From the NCBI RefSeq assembly GCF_018977255.1, contig NW_024704743.1, positions 12,216,001 through 12,280,000 of the forward strand: a stretch of DNA of 64,000 nucleotides, in the 5' to 3' direction. This stretch comes from Callorhinchus milii (lineage: Eukaryota). This document shows, piece by piece, positions 37,784 through 63,565 of this stretch; positions within the stretch are counted from its first letter, which is position 1; each line of letters opens with the position of its first letter. The notes beneath the pieces are model-generated. The model was not told where the DNA came from, did no database searches, and saw nothing but the letters and a program-made list of their open reading frames with translations. Both the position numbers and the translations under genes were made by a program.

Positions 37784-40700
37784 ACACAACTACACACTGA
37801 TACACAGTTATACACCGACACAACTACACACTGATACACAGTTATACACCGACACAACTACACACTGATACACAGTTATACACCGACACAACTACACACT
37901 GATACACAGTTATACACCGACACAACTACACACTGATACACAGTTATACACCGAGACAACTACACACTGATACACAGTTATACACCGACACAACTACACA
38001 CTGATACACAGTTATACACCGACACAACTACACACTGATACACAGTTATACACCGACACAACTACACACTGATACACAGTTATACACCGACACAACTACA
38101 CACTGATACACAGTTATACACCGACACAACTACACACTGATACACAGTTATACACCGACACAACTACACACTGATACACAGTTATACACCGACACAACTA
38201 CACACTGATACACAGTTATACACCGACACAACTACACACTGATACACAGTTATACACCGACACAACTACACACTGATACACAGTTATACACCGACACAAC
38301 TACACACTGATACACAGTTATACACCGACACAACTACACACTGATACACAGTTATACACCGACACAACTACACACTGATACAGTTATACACCGACACAAC
38401 TACACACTGATACACAGTTATACACCGACACAACTACACACTGATACACAGTTATACACCGACACAACTACACACTGATACACAGTTATACACCGACACA
38501 ACTACACACTGATACACAGTTATACACCGACACAACTACACACTGATACACAGTTATACACCGACACAACTACACACTGATACACAGTTATACACCGACA
38601 CAACTACACACTGATACACAGTTATACACCGACACAACTACACACTGATACACAGTTATACACCGACACAACTACACACTGATACACAGTTATACACCGA
38701 CACAACTACACACTGATACACAGTTATACACCGACACAACTACACACTGATACACAGTTATACACCGACACAACTACACACTGATACACAGTTATACACC
38801 GACACAACTACACACTGATACACAGTTATACACCGACACAACTACACACTGATACACAGTTATACACCGACACAACTACACACTGATACACAGTTATACA
38901 CCGACACAACTACACACTGATACACAGTTATACACCGACACAACTACACACTGATACACAGTTATACACCGACACAACTACACACTGATACACAGTTATA
39001 CACCGACACAACTACACACTGATACACAGTTATACACCGACACAACTACACACTGATACACAGTTATACACCGACACAACTACACACTGATACACAGTTA
39101 TACACCGACACAACTACACACTGATACACAGTTATACACCGACACAACTACACACTGATACACAGTTATACACCGACACAACTACACACTGATACACAGT
39201 TATACACCGACACAACTACACACTGATACACAGTTATACACCGACACAACTACACACTGATACACAGTTATACACCGACACAACTACACACTGATACACA
39301 GTTATACACCGACACAACTACACACTGATACACAGTTATACACCGACACAACTACACACTGATACACAGTTATACACCGACACAACTACACACTGATACA
39401 CAGTTATACACCGACACAACTACACACTGATACACAGTTATACACCGACACAACTACACACTGATACACAGTTATACACCGACACAACTACACACTGATA
39501 CACAGTTATACACCGACACAACTACACACTGATACACAGTTATACACCGACACAACTACACACTGATACACAGTTATACACCGACACAACTACACACTGA
39601 TACACAGTTATACACCGACACAACTACACACTGATACACAGTTATACACCGACACAACTACACACTGATACACAGTTATACACCGACACAACTACACACT
39701 GATACACAGTTATACACCGACACAACTACACACTGATACACAGTTATACACCGACACAACTACACACTGATACACAGTTATACACCGACACAACTACACA
39801 CTGATACACAGTTATACACCGACACAACTACACACTGATACACAGTTATACACTGACACAACTACACACTGATACACAGTTATACACGACACAACTACAC
39901 ACTGATACACAGTTATACACCGACACAACTACACACTGATACACAGTTATACACCGACACAACTACACACTGATACACAGTTATACACCGACACAACTAC
40001 ACACTGATACACAGTTATACACCGACACAACTACACACTGATACACAGTTATACACCGACACAACTACACACTGATACACAGTTATACACTGACACAACT
40101 ACACACTGATACACAGTTATACACCGACACAACTACACACTGATACACAGTTATACACCGACACAACTACACACTGATACACAGTTATACACCGACACAA
40201 CTACACACTGATACACAGTTATACACCGACACAACTACACACTGATACAGTTATACACTGACACAACTACACACTGATACACAGTTATACACCGACACAA
40301 CTACACACTGATACACAGTTATACACCGACACAACTACACACTGTTATACACTGACACAACTACACACTGATACACAGTTATACACTGACACAACTACAC
40401 ACTGATACACAGTTATACACTGACACAACTACACACTGATACACAGTTATATACCGACACAACTACACACTGATACAGTTATACACCGACACAACTACAC
40501 ACTGTTATACACTGACACAACTACACACTGATACACAGTTATACACCGACACAACTACACACTGATACACAGTTATACACCGACACAACTACACACTGAT
40601 ACACAGTTATACACCGACACAACTACACACTGATACACAGTTATACACCGACACAACTACACACTGATACACAGTTATACACCGACACAACTACACACTG

Positions 40701-41100
40701 ATACACAGTTATACACCGACACAACTACACACTGATACACAGTTATACACCGACACAACTACACACTGATACACAGTTATACACTGACACAACTACACAC
40801 TGATACACAGTTATACACTGACACAACTACACACTGATACACAGTTATACACCGACACAACTACACACTGATACACAGTTATACACCGACACAACTACAC
40901 ACTGATACACAGTTATACACCGACACAACTACACACTGATACACAGTTATACACTGACACAACTACACACTGATACACAGTTATACACCGACACAACTAC
41001 ACACTGATACACAGTTATACACCGACACAACTACACACTGATACACAGTTATACACTGACACAACTACACACTGATACACACTGACACAACTACACACTG
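37784..41100 (+). repeat. Homogeneous 34-bp minisatellite (ACACAACTACACACTGATACACAGTTATACACCG)n
   Basis: Directly visible tandem array of roughly 95-100 near-identical units in THAP2 intron 1. Confidence 0.97.
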
Positions 41101-43700
41101 ATACACAGTTATACACTGACACAACTATACACTGATGTACACTGACAACTACACACACGCACTGATATACACTGACACAACTGCACACACACTGATACAC
41201 ACTGACACAACTACACACACACAGTTATACACTGACACAACTACACACACACACTGTTATACACTGACACAACTGCACACACACTGATACACACTGACAC
41301 AACTACACACACACTGTTATACACTGACACAACTACACACACACACTGTTATACACTGACACAACTACACACACACACTGTTATACACTGACACAACTAC
41401 ACACACACACTTATACACCGACTCAACTACACACACACACTGTTATACACTGACACAACTACCCACACACACTGTTATACACTGACACAACTACCCACAC
41501 ACACTGTTATACACTGACACAACTACACACACACTGATACACACTGACACGACTACACACACACTGTTATACACTGACACAACTACACACACACACTGAC
41601 ACAACTACACACACACACTGACCAACTACACACACACTGACACAACTACATACACACTGACACAACTACACACACACACTGTTATACACTGACACAACTA
41701 CACACACACTGATACACACTGACACAACTACACACACACTGATACACACTGACACAACTACACACACACTGATACACACTGACACAAGTACACACACACT
41801 GATACACACTGACACAAGTACACATACACACTGTTATACACTGACACAACTACACACACTGATACACACTGACTCAACTACACACACTGTTATACACTGA
41901 CACAACTACACACACACACTGATATACACTGACACAACTACACACTGATATACACTCACACAACTATACACTGATACACACTGACACAACTATACACTGA
42001 TACACACTGACACAACTATACACTGACACAACTACACACTGATATACACTGACACAACTACACACACACACTGATGTACACTAACACAACTACACACACA
42101 CTGATATACATTGACACAACTATACACTGATATACACTGACACAACTATACACTGACACAACTACACACACGCACTGATATACTCTGACACAACTACACA
42201 CTGATATACACTGACACAACTACACACTGATGTATACTGACAACTACACACACGCACTGATATACACTGACACAACTACACACACGCACTGATATACATC
42301 CACTACTATATACATTGATACAAATACACACACATACATTGATATACACACACACTACTGTATACACTGACAAATATACACACATACACTGATATACACA
42401 CACTGCTATATAAACTAGCACAAATATACACACACACAGATATACACACACACACACACTATTTACATGCCACAAATATACACACATACACTGAGAGATA
42501 CACACACACTGACACTGAGATATACACTAACACTGAGAGATATACACACACACCGACACTGAGAAATATACACACATACTGACACTGAAATATACACACA
42601 CTGACACTGAAATATACACTCACTGACATTGAGATACATACACAGACACTGAGATACATACACAGACACTGAGATATACACATACTGACACTGAGATACA
42701 TACTGACACTGAAATAAACACACCACACTGACATTGAAATATACACACTCACTGACACTGAGATATACACACGCACTGACACCGAGATATACACACGCAC
42801 TGACACTGAGATATACACACGCACTGACACTGAGAGATATACTCACGCTGACACTGAGAGATAAACACACACTGGCACTGAGATGTACACACACACTGAC
42901 ACTGAGATGTACACACACTGACACTGAGAGATACGCACACACTGACACTTGAGATGTACACGCACACAGACACTGAGGTGTACACACATACTGACAATGA
43001 GAGATATACACACACACTGACACTGAGATGTACACACACACTGACACTGAGATGTACACACATACTGACACTGAAAGGTATACACACACTGACACTGAGA
43101 GATACACACACAGACACTGAAATATACACACACTGACACTGAAATATACACACACTGACACTGAAATATACACACTCTGACACTGAAATATACACACACT
43201 GACACTGAAATATACACACGCACTGACACTGAGATATACACACGCACTGACACTGAGATATACACACGCACTGACACAGATATACATACGCACTGACACT
43301 GAGAGATAAACACACACACACTGGCACTGAGATATACACACACACTGACACAGATACACACACACAGACACTGAGATGTACACACATACTGACAATGAGA
43401 GATATACACACACACTGACACTGAGATGTACACACACACTGATACTGAGATGTACACACATACTGACACTGAGATATACACACACACTGACACAGATACA
43501 CACACACTGACACTTGAGATGTACACGCACACAGACACTGAGGTGTACACACATACTGACAATGAGAGATATACACACACACTGACACTGAGATGTACAC
43601 ACACACTGACACTGAGATGTACACACACACTGACTCTGAGATGTACAGACACACTGACTCTGAGATATATATAGACACACTGACACTGAGATATACTGCC
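41101..43700 (+). repeat. Degenerate AC-rich satellite continuing the array (variants such as ACTGACACTGAGATATACACAC)
   Basis: Same CA-rich backbone with variable unit length; gives spurious VSVCVY/THT ORFs. Confidence 0.9.
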
Positions 43701-54350: not shown

Positions 54351-55499
54351 ATTATTACTAGCTGGTTATTTTAAATGTTGCAAAAATAAAGCAATGATAC
54401 AGCAATTGTTTTTTACTTCAGGAAAACATGATGAATGTATTTTTACTTACCAATAGAGCGTGAGTGATCAACAAACTGGAGAGAATATTTCTGATAGGAG
54501 CACAAGATGATGTACGGACATTAAATTCTAATGATGTTTCTATCTACGCATTAACACGCTATTCCTCTTTCAAGTGGTACCATTCCATTGCATTGGAGGG
54601 AGGTTGACAGGTAGAAAATACTCCTGATACATTTGTGTGATATATGTGATATCTTCTTGGTGGTGTGGGGGAAGGTTGCATGTCATCTTGGAGCTGAGTT
54701 GGCTTCTATGTAACTTGCTTGTCAATGGAATTGAATCAGCCGTGTGTGCTGGTCTGTACTCTGGTTCCTGAGTCAAGTGAGTCTACAGTACTCCAAGACA
54801 CCACTAATAACAGACAAGCCAATGTGCCTCATCGGAAGAAACTTGAAGAGATGGTCCAGTCACTGGGAGCAGGGATTCTTTCCACTCAGCTCAAGTTAAC
54901 CATGGGTAGGGTGATTCTGGCTGGACATGCAGTGGGAGGCTTGCCAGATATTACTCACAATGCAAGCCATACATTTTTAGTTGGATAAACTCCAGCAGTA
55001 CTCCCAACACACACTCTGGGGTCCTTAGCTCTTTCTAGCCTGTGTCTAATACTGTCTGGAATTAGATAAGAAGGGTGCATCCCTCTAGGGAGAGAGTACA
55101 CATTCAATCCAGACACAGAAATTTCCATGTGGAAATGGTTTGGGTACTCTTAAGCATGGTGATGGGATTCCACATGCTTCAGGCTCCAGACTAAGCCCCA
55201 TAAAGATATTGAGTGCTCTTAGAGTAGATTATGTTACGTGTTGGATTGTGGAACGGATATTAATCATCAAAATTGATACCAATGTATTTTCATTATCTTT
55301 CAGGGTAGTACTCAGACATTCAGGAACGTTTACAGAAGAAATCTGCAGTTCAAGGGAAACCCAACCTCTGGAGAATGATGACTGACTTTACCTCCATTTC
55401 CAGCACCTGATAATTGTGACATGTTCATGTTTCGGAAAAAAATAACTGATTTCCCAAAAGTTATGTGACCTAAATGAACTTTAGGTCACTGAGGAATAT

Positions 55500-56324
55500 T
55501 GTCACGGTTACCCTGTTTTTGCAATCCTTAGTAATGAGTAAAATTATATGTATTATTTAAGGGAAATGGGGAGACCTGTCCCTTTAATTAAGAATCTGTT
55601 TGAGAAACTGCTTGCAAAAGATTTGGTTCCAGAAGCTGTGTGCAAAAGACTTAGCAATCAGCATAAGTTGCTAAGTTACTTACAGCATAAGAGCCCAAGT
55701 TCCAACAATATCTCGGCTCAAAACTGTTTAATTGACAGGCAGTTAACAAGCAGCCTGGAAAGTCACGTGAACACTCGCGCGGGAAAAAGCCACTTACATT
55801 CACATCATGGTGAGGTGGAGCCACATGTCTATAAAAGGCAATGCTCGTCGTTCATCGTCACGAGCTAATGGTCGTCATCTGGTACATACTGACATCAAAG
55901 GACTATTGTACTGTCAGTTAGTTGAAGCCTCTTTACTAATGTAGTACTGTGCTGCTAGTTATATAGTTATGTGTGTTAGTTATATTTGATCCCATTGTTG
56001 TTTATCTTAAATTGTTGTATTCCTTACATGCAAGATATTCTGCTGAATGTATCCTCGAACCTCCGTAATATTCTAAAATAAGAAAAGCAGTAAGCACTTA
56101 GAGAGTAGCTGTTGACATCGGAGTTCTGGTAGTGCTAGCATACTCGAATTAGATATTCCAGTTATCAGGCTGTTAAATTGGAATACTAGTCTGAGTGTCT
56201 AATTCTGATTTGGTTGAGCCTTTGAGCAGTGACTCACACTGACAGGGAGGGTTAGAAAGTGTGAAGTCACTTAATACAAAAATTTTACTAAAATTCGCAA
56301 GTACAAGGAGTGAGAACCATCGCA
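55500..56324 (+). mobile_element. 5' LTR of the provirus (~825 bp)
   Basis: Starts TGTCACGGTTACCCTG, repeated at 63312; ends CA two bases before the PBS; TATA box TATAAAAG near 55830; E-box CACGTG and E2F-like CGCGGGAAAA upstream. Confidence 0.85.
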
Positions 56325-56326
56325 CT

Positions 56327-56343
56327 TGGCGACAACGTGGGGC
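56327..56343 (+). promoter_or_regulatory. Primer-binding site, tRNA-Lys1,2 type
   Basis: TGGCGACAACGTGGGGC(TCGA) versus canonical Lys1,2 PBS TGGCGCCCAACGTGGGGC: one substitution, one deletion. Confidence 0.85.
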
Positions 56344-56439
56344 TCGAGGACATTGACGTAGAACTTCAGAATTTATTTCTACTGGAGTATAAGAATAAGA
56401 TAATGGTAGATGCAGCAAGCGACCGGGACAAATTACTAA

Positions 56440-57985
56440 CATGCAACATTCGATGAAGCATACAGGGCGAACCCACTGAGAAACACTCGGGGAATGGCTA
56501 TATGAATGAGGAGTAGCTACTACACACTCAGTAACTGAAGAGAATCGGGGTCATTAGCGTGAGAAAACGTAATGAGTCTGACCCAGGAATAGAATATTTG
56601 GAATATGGAGATTGGGATAGGCCTCCGAACTGAAGGAATTGAAATGTTAGGATTGGCCCAAAGAAGTAATTCTGACTACAGTAACAGAAGTAGAGAGGGA
56701 GTGAATGCTTTGTTGCAGCTGAGAGAGCTCATAAGGTTAACCGACCCAAATAAGAAAATCAAATTAAAACTGACCTCTACCCGAGTGAGCAGTACAGACA
56801 AAACTATACCTGACTCTTTACAGCCCATTATTGTGGTTCGAGAACGGGGATCACCGGCTAGCTCAGAGACAAGAAGATCCTATGTGGAGGGTCCTTGGCG
56901 CACTGTGTGGGATATCAATAGAGAAAAAGTTTAGAGTTTGTATGAGGTACCGAGAGTACCAGCAGTGAAAGAGTGTGCGGGGATAGTTGTAGAGACCACA
57001 TGGGAGGAGGCCACAAAGCAAAATTGGGAGGGATACCTCACAAAAGTACTCACTCAGTTCAAAGCCAGGGAAAAAGGGACCAGCGGAACATCTGATAATT
57101 GGTTCTGCTCCACAATTAAGAGCAGACCTGTTTCTGTATTTAAATAATGGTGCAGACTATCTCCTAAAGGCAGAAATGGGAGCAGCAATCTTCTCCTTGG
57201 CATCGGGGCTAACAGCAAGAATACATTTAACTCAGAAATATAGAGAAAGTGCAAAAAATGCAACACAGGTTTTTGAGCCACAGAAAACAAATGCTTTCAG
57301 AAAAATATGAAAATAAAGTAACTGAAATAAATATAGCTTTGCAAGAAATGCAGGCTGAGGTGCTGAGTTTGTCTAATCAACTTCTGCCAGTAGAAGAAAT
57401 TATAGTCCAATTAAGGTTAGACGAGGCAGGGCAGCTGTACCAAATAACAGAATTAAAGAGAAGAGCCTCCCAAACGAGAGACTGGGAGTTTTGATGGGCG
57501 CGAATTGCATGCGGGAAAGCACCCATGTGGCAAATGATAATGGCGTACAGCTGGGGAATCACTCACACACAGAAAGTGTGCTAAGGCTTAAATCCTTGAC
57601 AGGGACTTTGCCTGAATTCAAAGTAGTTGAAAGCTGGTTGGATTCAGTGATATCAATAGAAAAGTTGGTAGTTTTACAGAGTAAAACTGCCGTGCAGATT
57701 CATTTGCAATCAGTAGTTAACAAACGCTGAAGGCACCTGATCAACCCCGAGTGGGATAGTTTGGTCATGGCACTTAGCGAAATTAAGCGGACAGTTGTAC
57801 GAGAAAGAGGGCTTCCAGAGAAAATAGACCAGGTTCTAGCACCCACCTGAGTGCCAGTGTCCCAAATCACCAAACTTTTCAAAAGAGTTCTGGGGAAAGA
57901 TGTTTCTAATGGCACTGGCACCAGATAGAAAAAGTTGTGTTCTTCTGATGTTAATCCACTCTAACCAGGGCACTGGGATGTAATA
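56440..57985 (+). pseudogene. gag: Disrupted 5' ORF/gag region of the provirus, with coiled-coil segment and capsid-like segment
   Basis: Chain of + strand ORF fragments (56605-56934, 56938-57147, 57249-57494, 57491-57730 and beyond) between PBS and protease; heptad-rich KYENKVTEINIALQEMQAEVLSLSNQL; assignment mainly by position. Confidence 0.6.
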
Positions 57986-57989
57986 ATTA

Positions 57990-59170
57990 AGAGGGAGGAA
58001 GAGTGTGCCAGAGTTTCGGAGTGTAGTGGCTGAAAGCGCGACCTCCGATGGTGGGGCGGAGGGCGTGAGGGACAGGCAGCAGACCATTACCAGTCGAGTG
58101 GAGGCACCAGGAGGTGGATAGAGGAGTTAGGAGGTCGGAGAGGTAGGGAGGTGCCAGTTAGTGAAGGGATTTGAACACAAGTGTGAGGATCTTGAAGTTG
58201 ATTCGTTCGGTGATAGGGAACCAGTGGAGCCTGGCCAGAACTGGTGAGACCTGGGAACAGAGCTTGGTCCAGGTCAATGTGGGCAGCAGAGTTCTGACTG
58301 AGCTGGATCTTTTGAATAGTGGAATTGGGGAGACCGGCGAGGTGTTTGAGTAATCCAGGGTGGACATGACAAGCGCATACACGAGGGTTTCAGCTGCATT
58401 TGGGGTAAGGTATGGTTGGAGCCGGGCAATGTGGCGGAGGTGGAAGAAGACAGTCCTGCTCAGGTACCAGATGTGGGGAAGGAAGGACAGCTGGATTGTG
58501 CACTAGTTTGGTGAGTGAGGGAGAGCCCAGGGAGTTCAAATCTGCAGGAGTGAAGATGTTGATGGGAGCCAAGAAATATGGCTTCCATTTTGTCCACATT
58601 CAGCTGCAGGAAGTTTGCACTTATCCAGGCCTTGATGTCTGCCAGACAAGCTGATAGAACATCGGGGGACCTGGAGTTGGTACTGGAGGAGGCAAAGTAG
58701 ATTTATGTATCATCCGCATACATGTGGAAGTTTACCCCGTGTCTGCGATAACATCACACAGAGGGAGCGTATAGATGAGGAAAAGCAGAGGGCCAAGGAT
58801 GGAGCCCTGGGGTACTCTGCAGGTGACCGGGCGGGGGTGGGAGGAGAAACCATTTGCCGAGATGAAACGGAGGCGGTTGGTTAAGCAGGACTCGAACCAT
58901 TTGATTGCGGTCCTACTAAGGTGGATGAGGGAGGAGAGGCGGTGGAGGAGGATGGTGTGGTCAACTGTGTCGATCGCGGCAGAGATCCACGAGGATGAAG
59001 AGGCCAAGGGTACCCTGGTCACAGATAGAGAGGATGTCGTTTGTGACTTTGAACAAGTGCTGTTTCTGTGGGCAGGGCCAAAACCAGACTGCAGGGGCTT
59101 GGGGAGGGAGTGGAGGGAGGGTGTGACCAAAGTTGACCTCCAACAATGCGTTCCAGGACTTTGGCAAAGC
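57990..59170 (-). mobile_element. L2 LINE fragment inserted in proviral gag
   Basis: LQSGF, DTVDHTILLHRL, VPQGSILGPLLFLIY, LARLHWFPITERINFKIL on the minus strand. Confidence 0.9.
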
Positions 59171-59204
59171 AGAGAATTCTCAAATCCCTATGGGTACATG
59201 ATAG

Positions 59205-59400
59205 GACAGTGGCAATCTTCCGGTGAGCGTGAGCTTTGCCAGTCGTCCCCGCATTCCTGTTATTATATGTGGAAAAATTAATAATGCTTTAGTAAACACG
59301 TGGGCGCAGGTAACAGTACTCAGTAAGAATATAGCAAGAGAGGAGCCTGAACGGAAAGGGTGTGCTGGTAGAGGGGGTATGAGGTGAGTTAATACAAATG
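59205..59400 (+). pseudogene. Retroviral aspartic protease remnant
   Basis: Hand translation SRPRIPVIICGKINNALVNTWAQVTVL, read as RP..V.I.G..AL(V)DTGAQVT with the catalytic motif mutated at 59295-59303. Confidence 0.75.
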
Positions 59401-59710
59401 TACGATCAAATGGCTGAGATTACAGATGTAGAGCAATCTGAAGTAATTGCAATGAAAATAGTTGTTCATCCTGAAGAGGATGAATGGAAAATGTGATACT
59501 GGAATGCGACTTTCTTAGAGAGTCGGATCGCCATAAAGTAATAGCAGTATGCATGTGGATGTAAACCCGGCTGAACAGAAGCAGTATATCCACACATAGT
59601 TAGACATAGATGAGCTTTGTAGAGTTTTACAGGTTTGCAGCTGTAGAGCTAATCATAAATTAGACTCCGGTTTAATTCAGCATGAGGTTAGGATACGTGG
59701 AGGGAACCAT

Positions 59711-60029
59711 AATAATAATAATAATCCTTGCATTTGATATAGCGCTTTTCATGTCAGGAGGACGTCCCAAAGCGCTTCACAGAACACACTGTAAAGTGAA
59801 TTGACTGTATATTTGTGGGCGAACGCGGCAGCCAATTGCGCACAGCAATGTCCCACAAACAGTCGTAGATTGAAAATGACCAATTTATTATTGTTTTTGG
59901 TTTTGGAGGGATTATTATTAGGCGTGTGGAGTAAGGAAACTTGCCCAAGGTTTCGCCCTCTGCCTGGAATTGAACTCGGGTCTCTCACTTGCAAAGCGAG
60001 TGCTCTAACCACTGAGCTACAGGACTCCA
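59711..60029 (-). mobile_element. tRNA-derived SINE with ATT tail, inserted in proviral pol
   Basis: A box TAGCTCAGTGG, B box GAGTTCAATTCC, (ATT)n tail; TSD GAACCATAA; near-identical to the copy at 31862-32190. Confidence 0.92.
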
Positions 60030-61560
60030 GAACCATAAACCCGTTCCCCAATACCCCTTACCCAGTGACTCAATCTCTGATCTAAAAAGACAGAGAATTA
60101 GAAAGGAGAGTTATCTGAGAATTAGAAAGGAGAGATATAATTACAAAATGTGAACCTTCAACAAATTCATCTCTTTTGCCAGTGCATAAAGCAGATGGGT
60201 CATGGCAACTAGTTGTAGACTTCCGTCAGTTAAATACTGTTACCGAAACAGCAGTGGGTCATAGCATCCATTTGAGTGGAGATTTAGACAACCTTCCTAA
60301 GGGAAGATACAAAATTACTTTGGATCTAGCTAACAGGTTCTGGAGTGTTCCCTTAGCTAAAGACGATAGGTGGAAAACGGCATTTACATTCCATGGACAG
60401 TAGTTCTATTGGAACCAAATGCCCCAGGGATGGAAATATTCCCCAGCCATCTTGAACAAGTGCCAACAACAAACCGTGATTGGGATCCTGGGTGTCATTT
60501 GTTATGTAGATGATATTTTTTGGGCGGATGATAGTCCAACTGAACACCTTAAGAAATTGGATGGAGTGCTGGAAGCACTCGCTTCTTTGGGGTTCAACAT
60601 AAACCTTAAGAAAAGCCAGATAAGCAGATATAAAGTAGATTTACCTTGGCCACACTGTCTCAGAAGATGGGGTAGGTTTTTAGGAGGGTTATCTAGATAG
60701 AATTAGAAAACTTGTGACTCTTCAAAATAGGAAACCATTACAAGGAATTTGGGGGCTCTGTAACAATGCCAACAATCATGTGCTTAACTATTCTGTGCTG
60801 GTAAAACCTTCATATCAAAGGCTCACAAAGGCAGGGGAGATAGAAGGCAGTGTAGATCTTGACCACGTGCAGCCGGAGCTGGAGACTCTGCAAGATACTG
60901 CTGGCACTTAGAGTCGTTGGTAAGGACTTACTGGTGTCGGTACAAGTGGGTTGACTCCGCAATAGTCAGGGTCTGTCAAGAGGGGGAATTGATTCCTCTA
61001 AAATACATTAGCTTCCAATTCTCTCGAGCCAAAAACAAATTCAACTTCAAGGAAAGCAATCTCTCAGCTGCCACTACAATTTTAGCAAAAATTTGAAATT
61101 TTGCACAGCATGCAGAGAAAATAAAAATTTCAACTGCATGCATCGGCATCAGATTGGCAGCGCAGGGCAGAGGAAAAAGCCAAAAGGCTTCAAGGCCAAG
61201 GTGGGCTCTGTGGGAAGGGCTTTTATAAGACCCCATGGTAGAGTTTCACACTCGGTCAGAAGCAGATTTGGAGTTAGACAGCTTACTGTCTGAAAGCAGA
61301 TCCCCATCGGAAGCGGTTCTTTGGGACCTGGTGGAAAGGTTAATGGTTGTGTATTGCGATGGCTCTTCGCAGGATGTCAAAAGGGTGTTGGCTGGTGCTG
61401 GGATTGTTATCAGTAAATGGACAGCAATGGGTTGGCAAGAGACGGAGAACTGCTCTATCTCCTGCAAAGGTATTTGAGTACAGGCTGCTGAGGTAACTGC
61501 TTTGTTGGAGGCGCTTAAGCTCCTCCTGTCAGATGTAAAGGTGGTTATCATTAGTGATTC
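60030..61560 (+). pseudogene. pol: pol remnant: reverse transcriptase (YVDD), thumb/tether and N-part of RNase H
   Basis: PVHKADGSWQLVVDFRQLN, YKITLDLANRFWSVPL, KTAFTF, MPQGWKYSP, CYVDDI, LQGIWGLCN, KYISFQFSRAKNKF, VYCDGSS...AGAGIV...QAAEVTAL...VIISDS; several stops and frameshifts. Confidence 0.92.
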
Positions 61561-62129
61561 TGTTGTAAGTTGGTTAAAATGGCATAAAAGAAATGCTTAT
61601 GAAGCTTCTTCTCCAATCACGCATCTTAGCACGTAACGAACATACTCGACCCTTGCACATCCTTGTACCCATATCTTCTAGATAAGCAGACTCTTTTGAG
61701 ACAAAGCAGCTTGCTCATTATTCTTCAACACAGGGCATCTTGCTTCTCCCTTCCGAGGTTGGAGCCTGTCTCTGTCTGGTAGAAACTTTTATAAAAACCG
61801 CAGTCCAACTTAAGTAAATTAGTTAACTCCAGAGCATCACTGAGTGGTTGCAGAGAACAATGAAGATTGAAAGCTTGGACAAAGAAGACAGAAGACTGAG
61901 AGCTAGGAAAAACACAAGGCTTGATAGCTTGAAGAACTAAAGTTTGCTTGCTGTAAAGACAAAGAGCTGAACCTGCAACGCTCAGTAGTATTGCTCTGTT
62001 TTATTAAGATAGACGTGATTTTTTTTTATACATGTGTGCATAATTAAAGGTTTGTTTTGATTAAAACATCCTGAGACTCTGACCTGTTGGTATTGCTGAA
62101 TCCGAACCTATTCTGAGTGGTTGCAAACA
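61561..62129 (+). mobile_element. Solo-LTR-like insertion inside the proviral RNase H
   Basis: TGTT...AACA ends, internal TATAAAA near 61790 and ATTAAA near 62043; RNase H reading resumes on the far side; no clear TSD. Confidence 0.6.
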
Positions 62130-62830
62130 GCCTATACGTGTCGAGCCTAAACGGATGACTTAACTAAGTGGGTTGCGGAATATTGGAAAGGGTTTCCCCT
62201 TATGGAAGAACCATAAGAGAAAATCCTTAGTCCATAAGCAGTATTGCCAACAGATTTGCGAGGGGAGAAAAAAACAGAAACCTCTAATCCAAGTTTGACC
62301 CCCGCCTGGACACCAAAAAGATGGTGTGCACAATATTGGCAATAGCCGTGCAGACCTACTCGCTCGTTCTGCATGCTACTTGAACGAGCCACCACAGGCT
62401 GCCAAGGTATCAGTGACATGGGCGGTAAACTGTGATTTTACTTCTAACCCTGAGTAAAAGTTAGCGACATTCCTGGAGTCAGGGCAAATGGAGAAACTTC
62501 CATTCTGGGCCAGAGGCAAAAAGGTTCAAGTGAAGGTGTCCATGTTTTACTGGCAAAGGAAGACTTTAAACCAACTTATTCATTATGATGACACATGAGG
62601 ACCTAGTAGTCTCCAAAATGGAGTAAAAGGGACCAAGGAAATTCTAAGGGAATACTGGTGGCCCAATATCAAAAGGGAGGATAAAACTACATGGTGGGTT
62701 GCATGCAAAATTGTGGAATTCCTAAAACGATAAAAATCCTCATTTCCAGAGGTAAACAGATAACAGTTTCGTTGACCAGGTCAAATAAGTTCAAGTTTAT
62801 CAAACCATTCGAATGTTGGGGAAATAATGG
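62130..62830 (+). pseudogene. pol: pol remnant: C-part of RNase H and integrase zinc-binding region, truncated
   Basis: AYTCRA*TDDLTKW continues RNase H after the insertion; ILREYWWPNIKRE...CMQNC is the integrase N-terminal signature; DDE core not seen. Confidence 0.78.
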
Positions 62831-63300
62831 CATGCAAGACAAGCCCTTTCTCCGGGTTCAGATATTGAGGGATGCGAGAATGCAGGAGCCATTCAAAAAC
62901 TGGACTGTATAAACACCTGGCGGTGACAGTCAAATGCAGTTGTCAAATGTTCAATGGGATCGTCTGGAAATGGTATTCTAAATTCTGGGATTGACCTAAT
63001 GATTATCATCAAAATTGAGTTATAATGAGTGGCTCTGTTATACATAAGAATATGTTTTTTATAGTAATAACTGGCATAAGTCTTTAAAAACATGATAATG
63101 TGTGTACGTTTCTGTCTTCTAGCTGAACTTGAAGTGCATGCGGTTTTCAGACAGACAGACAGAGATCAGCAACAGGCATCCATAAAAAATAATACGACAG
63201 AACAGAAAGTTTTGTGACAGATATTTTGTTGGACTCTTGAATTCTTTCCACCTATAGATTGATAAAAAAAGATGTTATTTTCTGAATATATTGATTATCG

Positions 63301-63565
63301 AGAGGAGGAAATGTCATGGTTACCCTATTTTTGCAATCCTTAGTAATCATAGAATTATACAGCACAGAAGGAGGCCATTCAGCCCATCGTGTTTGTGCCG
63401 GCTTTTTGAAAAGAGCTATCCAAATCAATCCCACTCCCCCGCGCTCTCCCCATAGCCCTGCAAACTTGTCCTCCCCAAATAATTATCTACTTCTCTCTTA
63501 AAAGTTGTTATCGAATCGGCTTCCACCGCCCTTTCAGGCAGACAGAGTAATGAGTAAATAATATA
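63301..63565 (+). mobile_element. Polypurine tract and interrupted start of 3' LTR
   Basis: AGAGGAGGAAA then TGTCATGGTTACCCTATTTTTGCAATCCTTAGTAAT at 63312 (2 mismatches to 5' LTR), resuming GAGTAAA at 63552 after a CR1 insertion. Confidence 0.88.
63348..63545 (-). mobile_element. CR1 LINE 3' fragment inserted in the 3' LTR
   Basis: Same 3' end as CR1 copies at 13626 and 43760; flanked by TSD AGTAAT (63342-63347 and 63546-63551). Confidence 0.88.

Follow-up and report, generated by a model that had tools for sequence, protein, structure and literature searches.

How a foamy-like retrovirus of a cartilaginous fish made its Pol protein, and to which lineage it belonged, are the questions raised by a decayed long terminal repeat (LTR) retroelement of Callorhinchus milii. 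The window analyzed was a stretch of 64,000 nucleotides (contig NW_024704743.1, positions 12,216,001 to 12,280,000), and the element occupied 55500–63560 of it on the plus strand. A sequence-only reading had described it as foamy-like or lokiretrovirus-like, possibly an undescribed basal lineage. The best explanation as a whole, in which we have moderate confidence, was an env-less, foamy-like C. milii family that expressed Gag-Pol by stop-codon readthrough. The window copy itself is an old, dead, decayed, env-less fossil, broken up by four nested insertions and with no sign of function; other copies in the genome are designated by locus numbers (L).

Placement among retroviruses

The reverse transcriptase (RT; 60034–60911) carried YKITLDLANRFW at 60308 and YVDD at 60503–60514, as the sequence-only reading had claimed, and matched Pfam RVT_1 at 81.7 bits; its coding region is interrupted by stops and, near 60640, by a frameshift. 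Its closest solved relatives were foamy Pols (124–128 bits), compared with 63 bits for Ty3 and at most 54 bits for lentiviruses; a word-index protein search with the RT against longer proteins returned no match. Phylogenies comprised a fast tree of 158 rows, from which 1 of 150 hits was omitted because its coverage was short, and two careful trees (62 and 31 rows) that combined a selection of these rows with named foamy viruses. Clade labels were based on named members and on the lokiretrovirus RT motif, and no row was identified as an epsilonretrovirus. The window copy and four others formed a clade (100/99, 62 rows) that joined the C. milii protein P0009 (98/84 with 62 rows, 91/82 with 31 rows) inside a clade of foamy viruses and foamy-like endogenous retroviruses (FLERVs; 100/98 and 99/98, respectively). 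The RT phylogeny that the sequence-only reading had proposed was therefore in agreement with its foamy-like label, and scores and trees together ruled out Ty3/Gypsy, as it had also held. That the element is foamy-like and not a lokiretrovirus is almost certain.

The window family branched first in the foamy clade; the opposing node was weak (83/77 and 66/41), and a basal place is weakly supported by the RT sequences. A foamy-like RT of the catshark Scyliorhinus torazame (P0053) grouped with ray-finned fish relatives, apart from the chimaera family, so that two or more foamy-like lineages exist in cartilaginous fishes.

Downstream of the RT, a tether or connection region with the first half of RNase H (60912–61560; YCDGS at 61352–61366) gave its best scores to foamy Pol 465–647. 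The separate RNase H predicted behind a tether was confirmed, passing the Pfam cut-off at 32.2 bits about 240 codons past the RT core. The second half of RNase H and the N-terminal zinc-binding part of the integrase followed at 62128–62706, and the C-terminal end of the integrase at 62707–62789. Of the integrase that had been claimed, YWWPN was found (62653–62667), but the catalytic core was lost from the window copy, in which approximately 711 bp were missing at 62706/62707 relative to L033; the core was retained in L033, L030, and L026. The DTGA-type protease likewise did not hold for the window copy, whose protease region (59205–59708) reads NTWA at the position of the catalytic motif (59295–59306), but a DTG motif was present in other copies such as L031, which matched Pfam RVP at 22.9 bits.

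The DTGA-type protease and a coiled coil ahead of the capsid had been taken to fit lokiretroviruses. A separate clade (100/99) with the lokiretrovirus RT motif of Wang and Han took the published position as sister group of the remaining retrovirus rows, and forcing the window family into it was 33 log units worse (approximately unbiased test, AU p=0.002), which ruled out a lokiretrovirus identity. The window RT motif was also unlike that of the lokiretroviruses in the supplement of Wang and Han, and no F-like env was seen in the copies read. Equine foamy virus and teleost foamy-like Pols also have DTGA, and coiled coils are a described feature of the N-terminal domain of foamy Gag (PMC7828637); therefore, neither is diagnostic of lokiretroviruses. 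A lokiretrovirus, or a new lineage between lokiretroviruses and foamy viruses, would accord with the tether and RNase H, the DTG protease of some copies, the coiled coil, and a tree of the integrase piece in which the family lay loosely with lokiretrovirus and class III rows (85/93; long branch, 45% of the columns, no CGIN1 row). With the RT placement against it, and with RNase H and the integrase C-terminus giving their best pairwise scores to foamy Pols, this alternative is extremely improbable. Lokiretroviruses (Wang and Han, 2021; PMC7947760) resemble the window family in the order protease-RT-tether-RNase H-integrase and have an RNase H of a group common to foamy viruses; they differ in RT clade and motifs, in an F-like env, and, in some members, in an smc-like gene.

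Near-intact, true lokiretrovirus-type elements, with the lokiretrovirus RT motif, LTRs of approximately 3 kb, and an env with an RXKR site, were present elsewhere in the assembly (L020–L025, L043, and L044; contigs C548, C771, C909, C556, C1182, C466, and C364). In Wang and Han (PMC7947760), 0 of 1 chimaera genomes is listed with a lokiretrovirus. The 8 full matches lay only on small unplaced contigs, which had a CpG ratio of 0.9 vs. 0.41 and no repeats in common with host loci. Near-identical DNA occurred under 5 organism labels in 11 studies, and the window and its high-copy repeat were lacking from all 4 of 4 sequencing runs that held it; no RNA dataset was listed as holding it. Judging from their sequence, these contigs are probably contaminants, and a first lokiretrovirus record for cartilaginous fish was rejected on the basis of contig size and placement, CpG, repeats, and runs. 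The contamination question applies likewise to more than 100 RT matches with long open frames and 28–34% identity on small unplaced contigs (C82–C1601).

The gag-pol junction

Comparison across copies placed gag from an AUG at 56403 over approximately 640 codons (about 1,930 nt), one tie in length being settled by leaving out a copy that did not span the interval; its identity as gag is taken from its position. In the window, the 5′ and middle parts (56403–58001) contained a coiled coil (about 57300–57480) and a capsid-like stretch (about 57560–58000) among many stops and frameshifts. At a nested insertion, the window copy lacked about 227 bp of gag that L026 and L034 have; beyond the insertion, the 3′ end (59165–59204) closed with a TAG (59202–59204) dividing gag from pol in the same frame. 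The coiled coil noted ahead of the capsid was thus present, but as part of the gag frame and not as a separate gene, and foamy Gag has coiled coils too. The window and L033 seemed to have a separate open reading frame preceding gag, a reading that was rejected: the appearance resulted from a common 11-nt deletion, and the frames stay joined in L026, L036, and L041. In four copies the gag frame was open for approximately 20 codons upstream of the first AUG (window 56334–56402), into the primer-binding site (PBS), and these codons varied conservatively; a non-AUG start of gag is possible. Inspection by eye of the L026, L034, and L048 gag tails revealed no Cys-His box and no GR or GQR boxes.

The junction was compared in 14 copies, which take in all 11 listed as spanning the site. 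A stop was present at the same site in 12 of the 14, including the divergent L029 and L037: TAG in 11 and TAA in one, the other two having TGG or a deletion. From the C-terminal helix of the capsid to the stop, the columns common to at least 4 of 7 copies amounted to 348 nt, i.e., whole codons, and each frameshifting indel in this interval was limited to one or two copies. From the stop to the protease active site, the window copy was in frame over 31 codons, and L031 read the stretch in one frame. The only AUG between the two lay 6 codons before the catalytic Asp and was missing in 5 of the 14 copies; in foamy Pols, the AUG lies 21–24 codons before this residue. As far as the sequences go, there is no AUG suited to starting Pol between the gag stop and the protease. 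Mammalian, salamander, and cichlid foamy viruses have pol in a frame of its own, whereas here it continued the gag frame beyond a stop; from this, stop-codon readthrough was inferred, and we consider it a reasonably likely way of making Pol.

One LTR-driven RNA would have been translated into a Gag of approximately 640 residues, and occasional readthrough of the TAG at 59202 would have produced a Gag-Pol fusion, as in gamma-, epsilon-, and XtERV-S-type class III retroviruses. Reverse transcription would have been primed by tRNA-Lys, and after loss of env the family may have multiplied as a retrotransposon, mainly within germ cells.

The same foamy-like family could instead have made Pol from a spliced RNA, with TAG|G as acceptor and initiation at an AUG of an upstream exon or at the AUG that immediately precedes the protease active site. 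Foamy viruses express Pol from a spliced RNA (PMC7828637), a pyrimidine stretch precedes TAG|G, GTAAG was found in U5 in 6/9 LTRs, and the downstream AUG was present in 9/14 copies. However, no strong donor was common to the LTR or gag copies, and reading from the two AUGs closest to the GTAAG in U5 of the window copy ends at stops short of this motif. Initiation at the downstream AUG, which was absent from the three most divergent copies, would remove the first protease strand, and the TAA of L037 keeps the stop while destroying the acceptor. Splicing is on this evidence quite unlikely.

Readthrough would be uninformative about the ancestral foamy virus if the stop had been fixed as a lesion in the single gag-pol frame of a non-autonomous master copy, or if the layout had been acquired late, once env was gone. 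In L049 the site reads TGG, 11/13 TAG would be expected from neutral decay of any source sequence, and the lack of env in all close copies marks the family as derived. The stop was nevertheless kept in subfamilies 65–72% identical to the window in DNA (L029 and L037), and gamma-, epsilon-, and XtERV-S retroviruses have the same layout (PMC8278194), which makes it a plausible ancestral state; a lesion or late origin seems unlikely.

Several findings weigh against the explanation favored here, an env-less, foamy-like family with readthrough Gag-Pol. No single copy was open from the gag start to the stop, frame continuity being a comparison of broken copies, and one 5′ gag interval was ambiguous (135, 136, or 138 nt). 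The gag frames gave no Pfam or PDB match, and prediction of the capsid fold was uninformative (predicted local distance difference test, pLDDT, 41). The resemblance of TAG|G to a splice acceptor, together with GTAAG in U5, counts on the same side. A conserved RNA structure 3′ of the stop was not found, with z scores of −1.2 to +2.1 in 12 of 13 copies and −2.6 in the window copy only, and a pseudoknot or hairpin after the stop was unsupported by these scores. Lastly, the integrase core scored best to class III frog endogenous retroviruses (ERVs; 59–63 bits), with 41–51 bits to foamy viruses.

Ends, env, and copies of the element

The 5′ LTR (55500–56324; 825 bp, TG..CA) was complete, with a TATA box at about 55830 and a poly(A) signal position at about 56037 that is decayed in the window copy; TATAAA was present in 5/9 LTRs and the poly(A) hexamer in 7/9. 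The LTR search that had been suggested for finding fuller copies gave 53 genome matches from the 40 of 274 candidates scored, and other copies kept parts that the window copy had lost. As described in the sequence-only reading, a 2-nt spacer and a Lys PBS (56327–56343) followed the terminal CA; the PBS, one base short and with one mismatch in its decayed state, was complementary to a host tRNA-Lys(CTT) gene. The polypurine tract (PPT) was also found (63300–63311), and its boundary with the LTR read AAA|TG in 4/4 distinct loci with the PPT shown (window, L026, L033, and L034). A 4-bp target-site duplication (TSD; 55496–55499) matched in 3/4 bases its counterpart, which follows the 3′ LTR a short way beyond the window. 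Among seven elements with both ends, the TSD was exact in three and matched in 3/4 bases in the other four.

The claim of both LTRs was correct for the 5′ LTR only in full, since the 3′ LTR was broken. Its start (63312–63560) was split by a repeat of approximately 200 bp (63348–63546), so that the window holds about 50 nt of it: 36 nt (63312–63347) and approximately 14 nt past the inserted repeat, a SINE. The middle of this LTR was not found; its last approximately 140 nt lay outside the window (L042:1371–1517, about window 64370–64516), with the end about 500 bp past the window edge. The LTR overlap of the window copy (36 nt at 94%, 148 nt at 80%) was too short for dating.

Between pol and the 3′ LTR, the window contained a short region without an env gene (62790–63299), 523 nt separating the pol stop from the LTR. 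No env was found in any copy read, the gap being approximately 500–520 nt and continuous in most copies; two copies with long post-pol gaps (C24 and C5) were left out of this reading, and divergent copies were too decayed to judge. Larger gaps occurred in three loci, at differing positions. A search of the genome with the foamy Env Pfam profile gave no match, the control being silent as well.

RT copies ranged from 74% to about 50% amino-acid identity, indicating several subfamilies, and approximately 10 further RT matches of 36–45% lay on chromosomes. Kimura two-parameter (K2P) divergence between paired LTRs was 0.093 for L026 and 0.059 for L033 (partial), corresponding to 211 and 134 million years, respectively, with the shark rate that PMC4422223 assumes, and to 21 and 13 million years with the mammalian one. 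The element family is old, and its age is poorly fixed.

P0009, which is XP_007889123.1, was encoded letter for letter in L018; this exact match confirmed the elephant shark, a chimaera, as host. This locus (L018/L035, G000:C5 at about 60.47 Mb) holds a single-copy open frame of 485 codons with a foamy-like RT and tether, in which the RT lacks the catalytic YxDD and reads RFGG; every other copy of the clade is disrupted. No orthologs in other species were found among 5,791 candidates. From its sequence, P0009 is possibly a co-opted foamy RT gene.

The insertion within gag was a fragment of a long interspersed element (LINE; 58002–59164) with an RVT_1 match on the minus strand, whose translated motifs we take to be of an L2/CR1-type RT. 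A young, high-copy short repeat resembling short interspersed elements (SINE-like; 59709–60033) had up to 97% identity to other copies. RNase H was split by a 567-bp dispersed repeat of another, solo-LTR-like family (61561–62127), which starts with TG and has several full-length copies at 88–94%; a sub-segment (query 66–252) occurred in higher copy number. A 24-bp tandem duplication at the RT start (60093–60138) was private to the window copy. Outside the element, long AC-rich minisatellite arrays (37784–43696; a 34-bp unit in about 114 copies, then a 24-bp unit) accounted for the strong composition skew of the window.

Relation to described foamy viruses

CmiFLERV was described from C. milii by Aiewsakun and Katzourakis (2017; PMC5512871), whose five RT sequences fell into two groups and who detected no gene besides pol; the four published contigs are AAVX02007855.1, AAVX02008076.1, AAVX02021479.1, and AAVX02030290.1. 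The window family shares with CmiFLERV the host, a foamy-like RT, and a basal position with fish FLERVs, and the two RT groups are paralleled here by the window family and the separate XP_007889123 sequence. The window family is very probably CmiFLERV. The CmiFLERV transcript XM_007890932.1 probably derives from P0009, and the window family would therefore most likely be the other CmiFLERV group.

Mammalian foamy viruses (prototype, feline, equine, and bovine: PFV, FFV, EFV, and BFV) and the salamander NviFLERV were approximately 33–35% identical to the window family in RT, and were alike in the tRNA-Lys PBS, 4-bp TSD, RNase H, and integrase C-terminus. The gag of prototype foamy virus has a similar length (1,947 nt), and a lack of the Cys-His box may be a further similarity. 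In contrast, mammalian foamy viruses start pol at an AUG of its own, in a frame different from that of gag, and express it from a spliced RNA (PMC7828637), and gag and pol of NviFLERV overlap by 125 nt in different frames. GR boxes, env, and accessory genes were not seen in the window family. Teleost FLERVs (AciFLERV/AcERV, DrFV; PMC5210030) resemble it in the foamy-like RT clade, a mostly Lys PBS, a 4-bp TSD, and, in several, a DTGA-type protease; unlike it, they are 12–17 kb long and have env, accessory genes, and GQR boxes, and gag and pol of AciFLERV overlap by 1 nt in different frames. Foamy viruses and their teleost relatives have a GGG|TG boundary (PMC5210030), compared with AAA|TG here. 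Gamma- and epsilonretroviruses and XtERV-S (PMC8278194) likewise have a stop codon between gag and pol of the same frame, but the RT of the window family lies in the foamy clade of the tree and not in its frog/bird class III clade.

Of the undescribed basal lineage proposed in the sequence-only reading, the lineage itself is most likely CmiFLERV and its basal place is weakly supported, as above, but the genome layout (825-bp LTR, Lys PBS, gag of about 640 codons, AAA|TG, in-frame stop, no env) is probably undescribed. A 2023 study by Wang, Chen and Cui of endogenous foamy viruses in cartilaginous fish reportedly covers sharks and rays. In the literature listings and passages searched, no LTR-to-LTR description of the chimaera element and no foamy-like ERV with readthrough were found; that study and Chen et al. 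(2021) may already cover part of this layout.

Tentatively, and with more doubt than confidence, the earliest-branching foamy lineage may have kept a readthrough Gag-Pol, with spliced pol and GGG|TG arising after the split from bony-vertebrate lineages; the chimaera family would then represent an ancestral state undescribed at this level. This lineage, so far published as pol fragments alone, now has LTR, gag, and integration-site features as well. Gag-independent Pol expression is the hallmark dividing foamy viruses from other retroviruses. With an in-frame stop in a foamy-clade element located at the root or close to it, the time at which this hallmark arose becomes testable across the gag-pol junctions of cartilaginous-fish ERVs.

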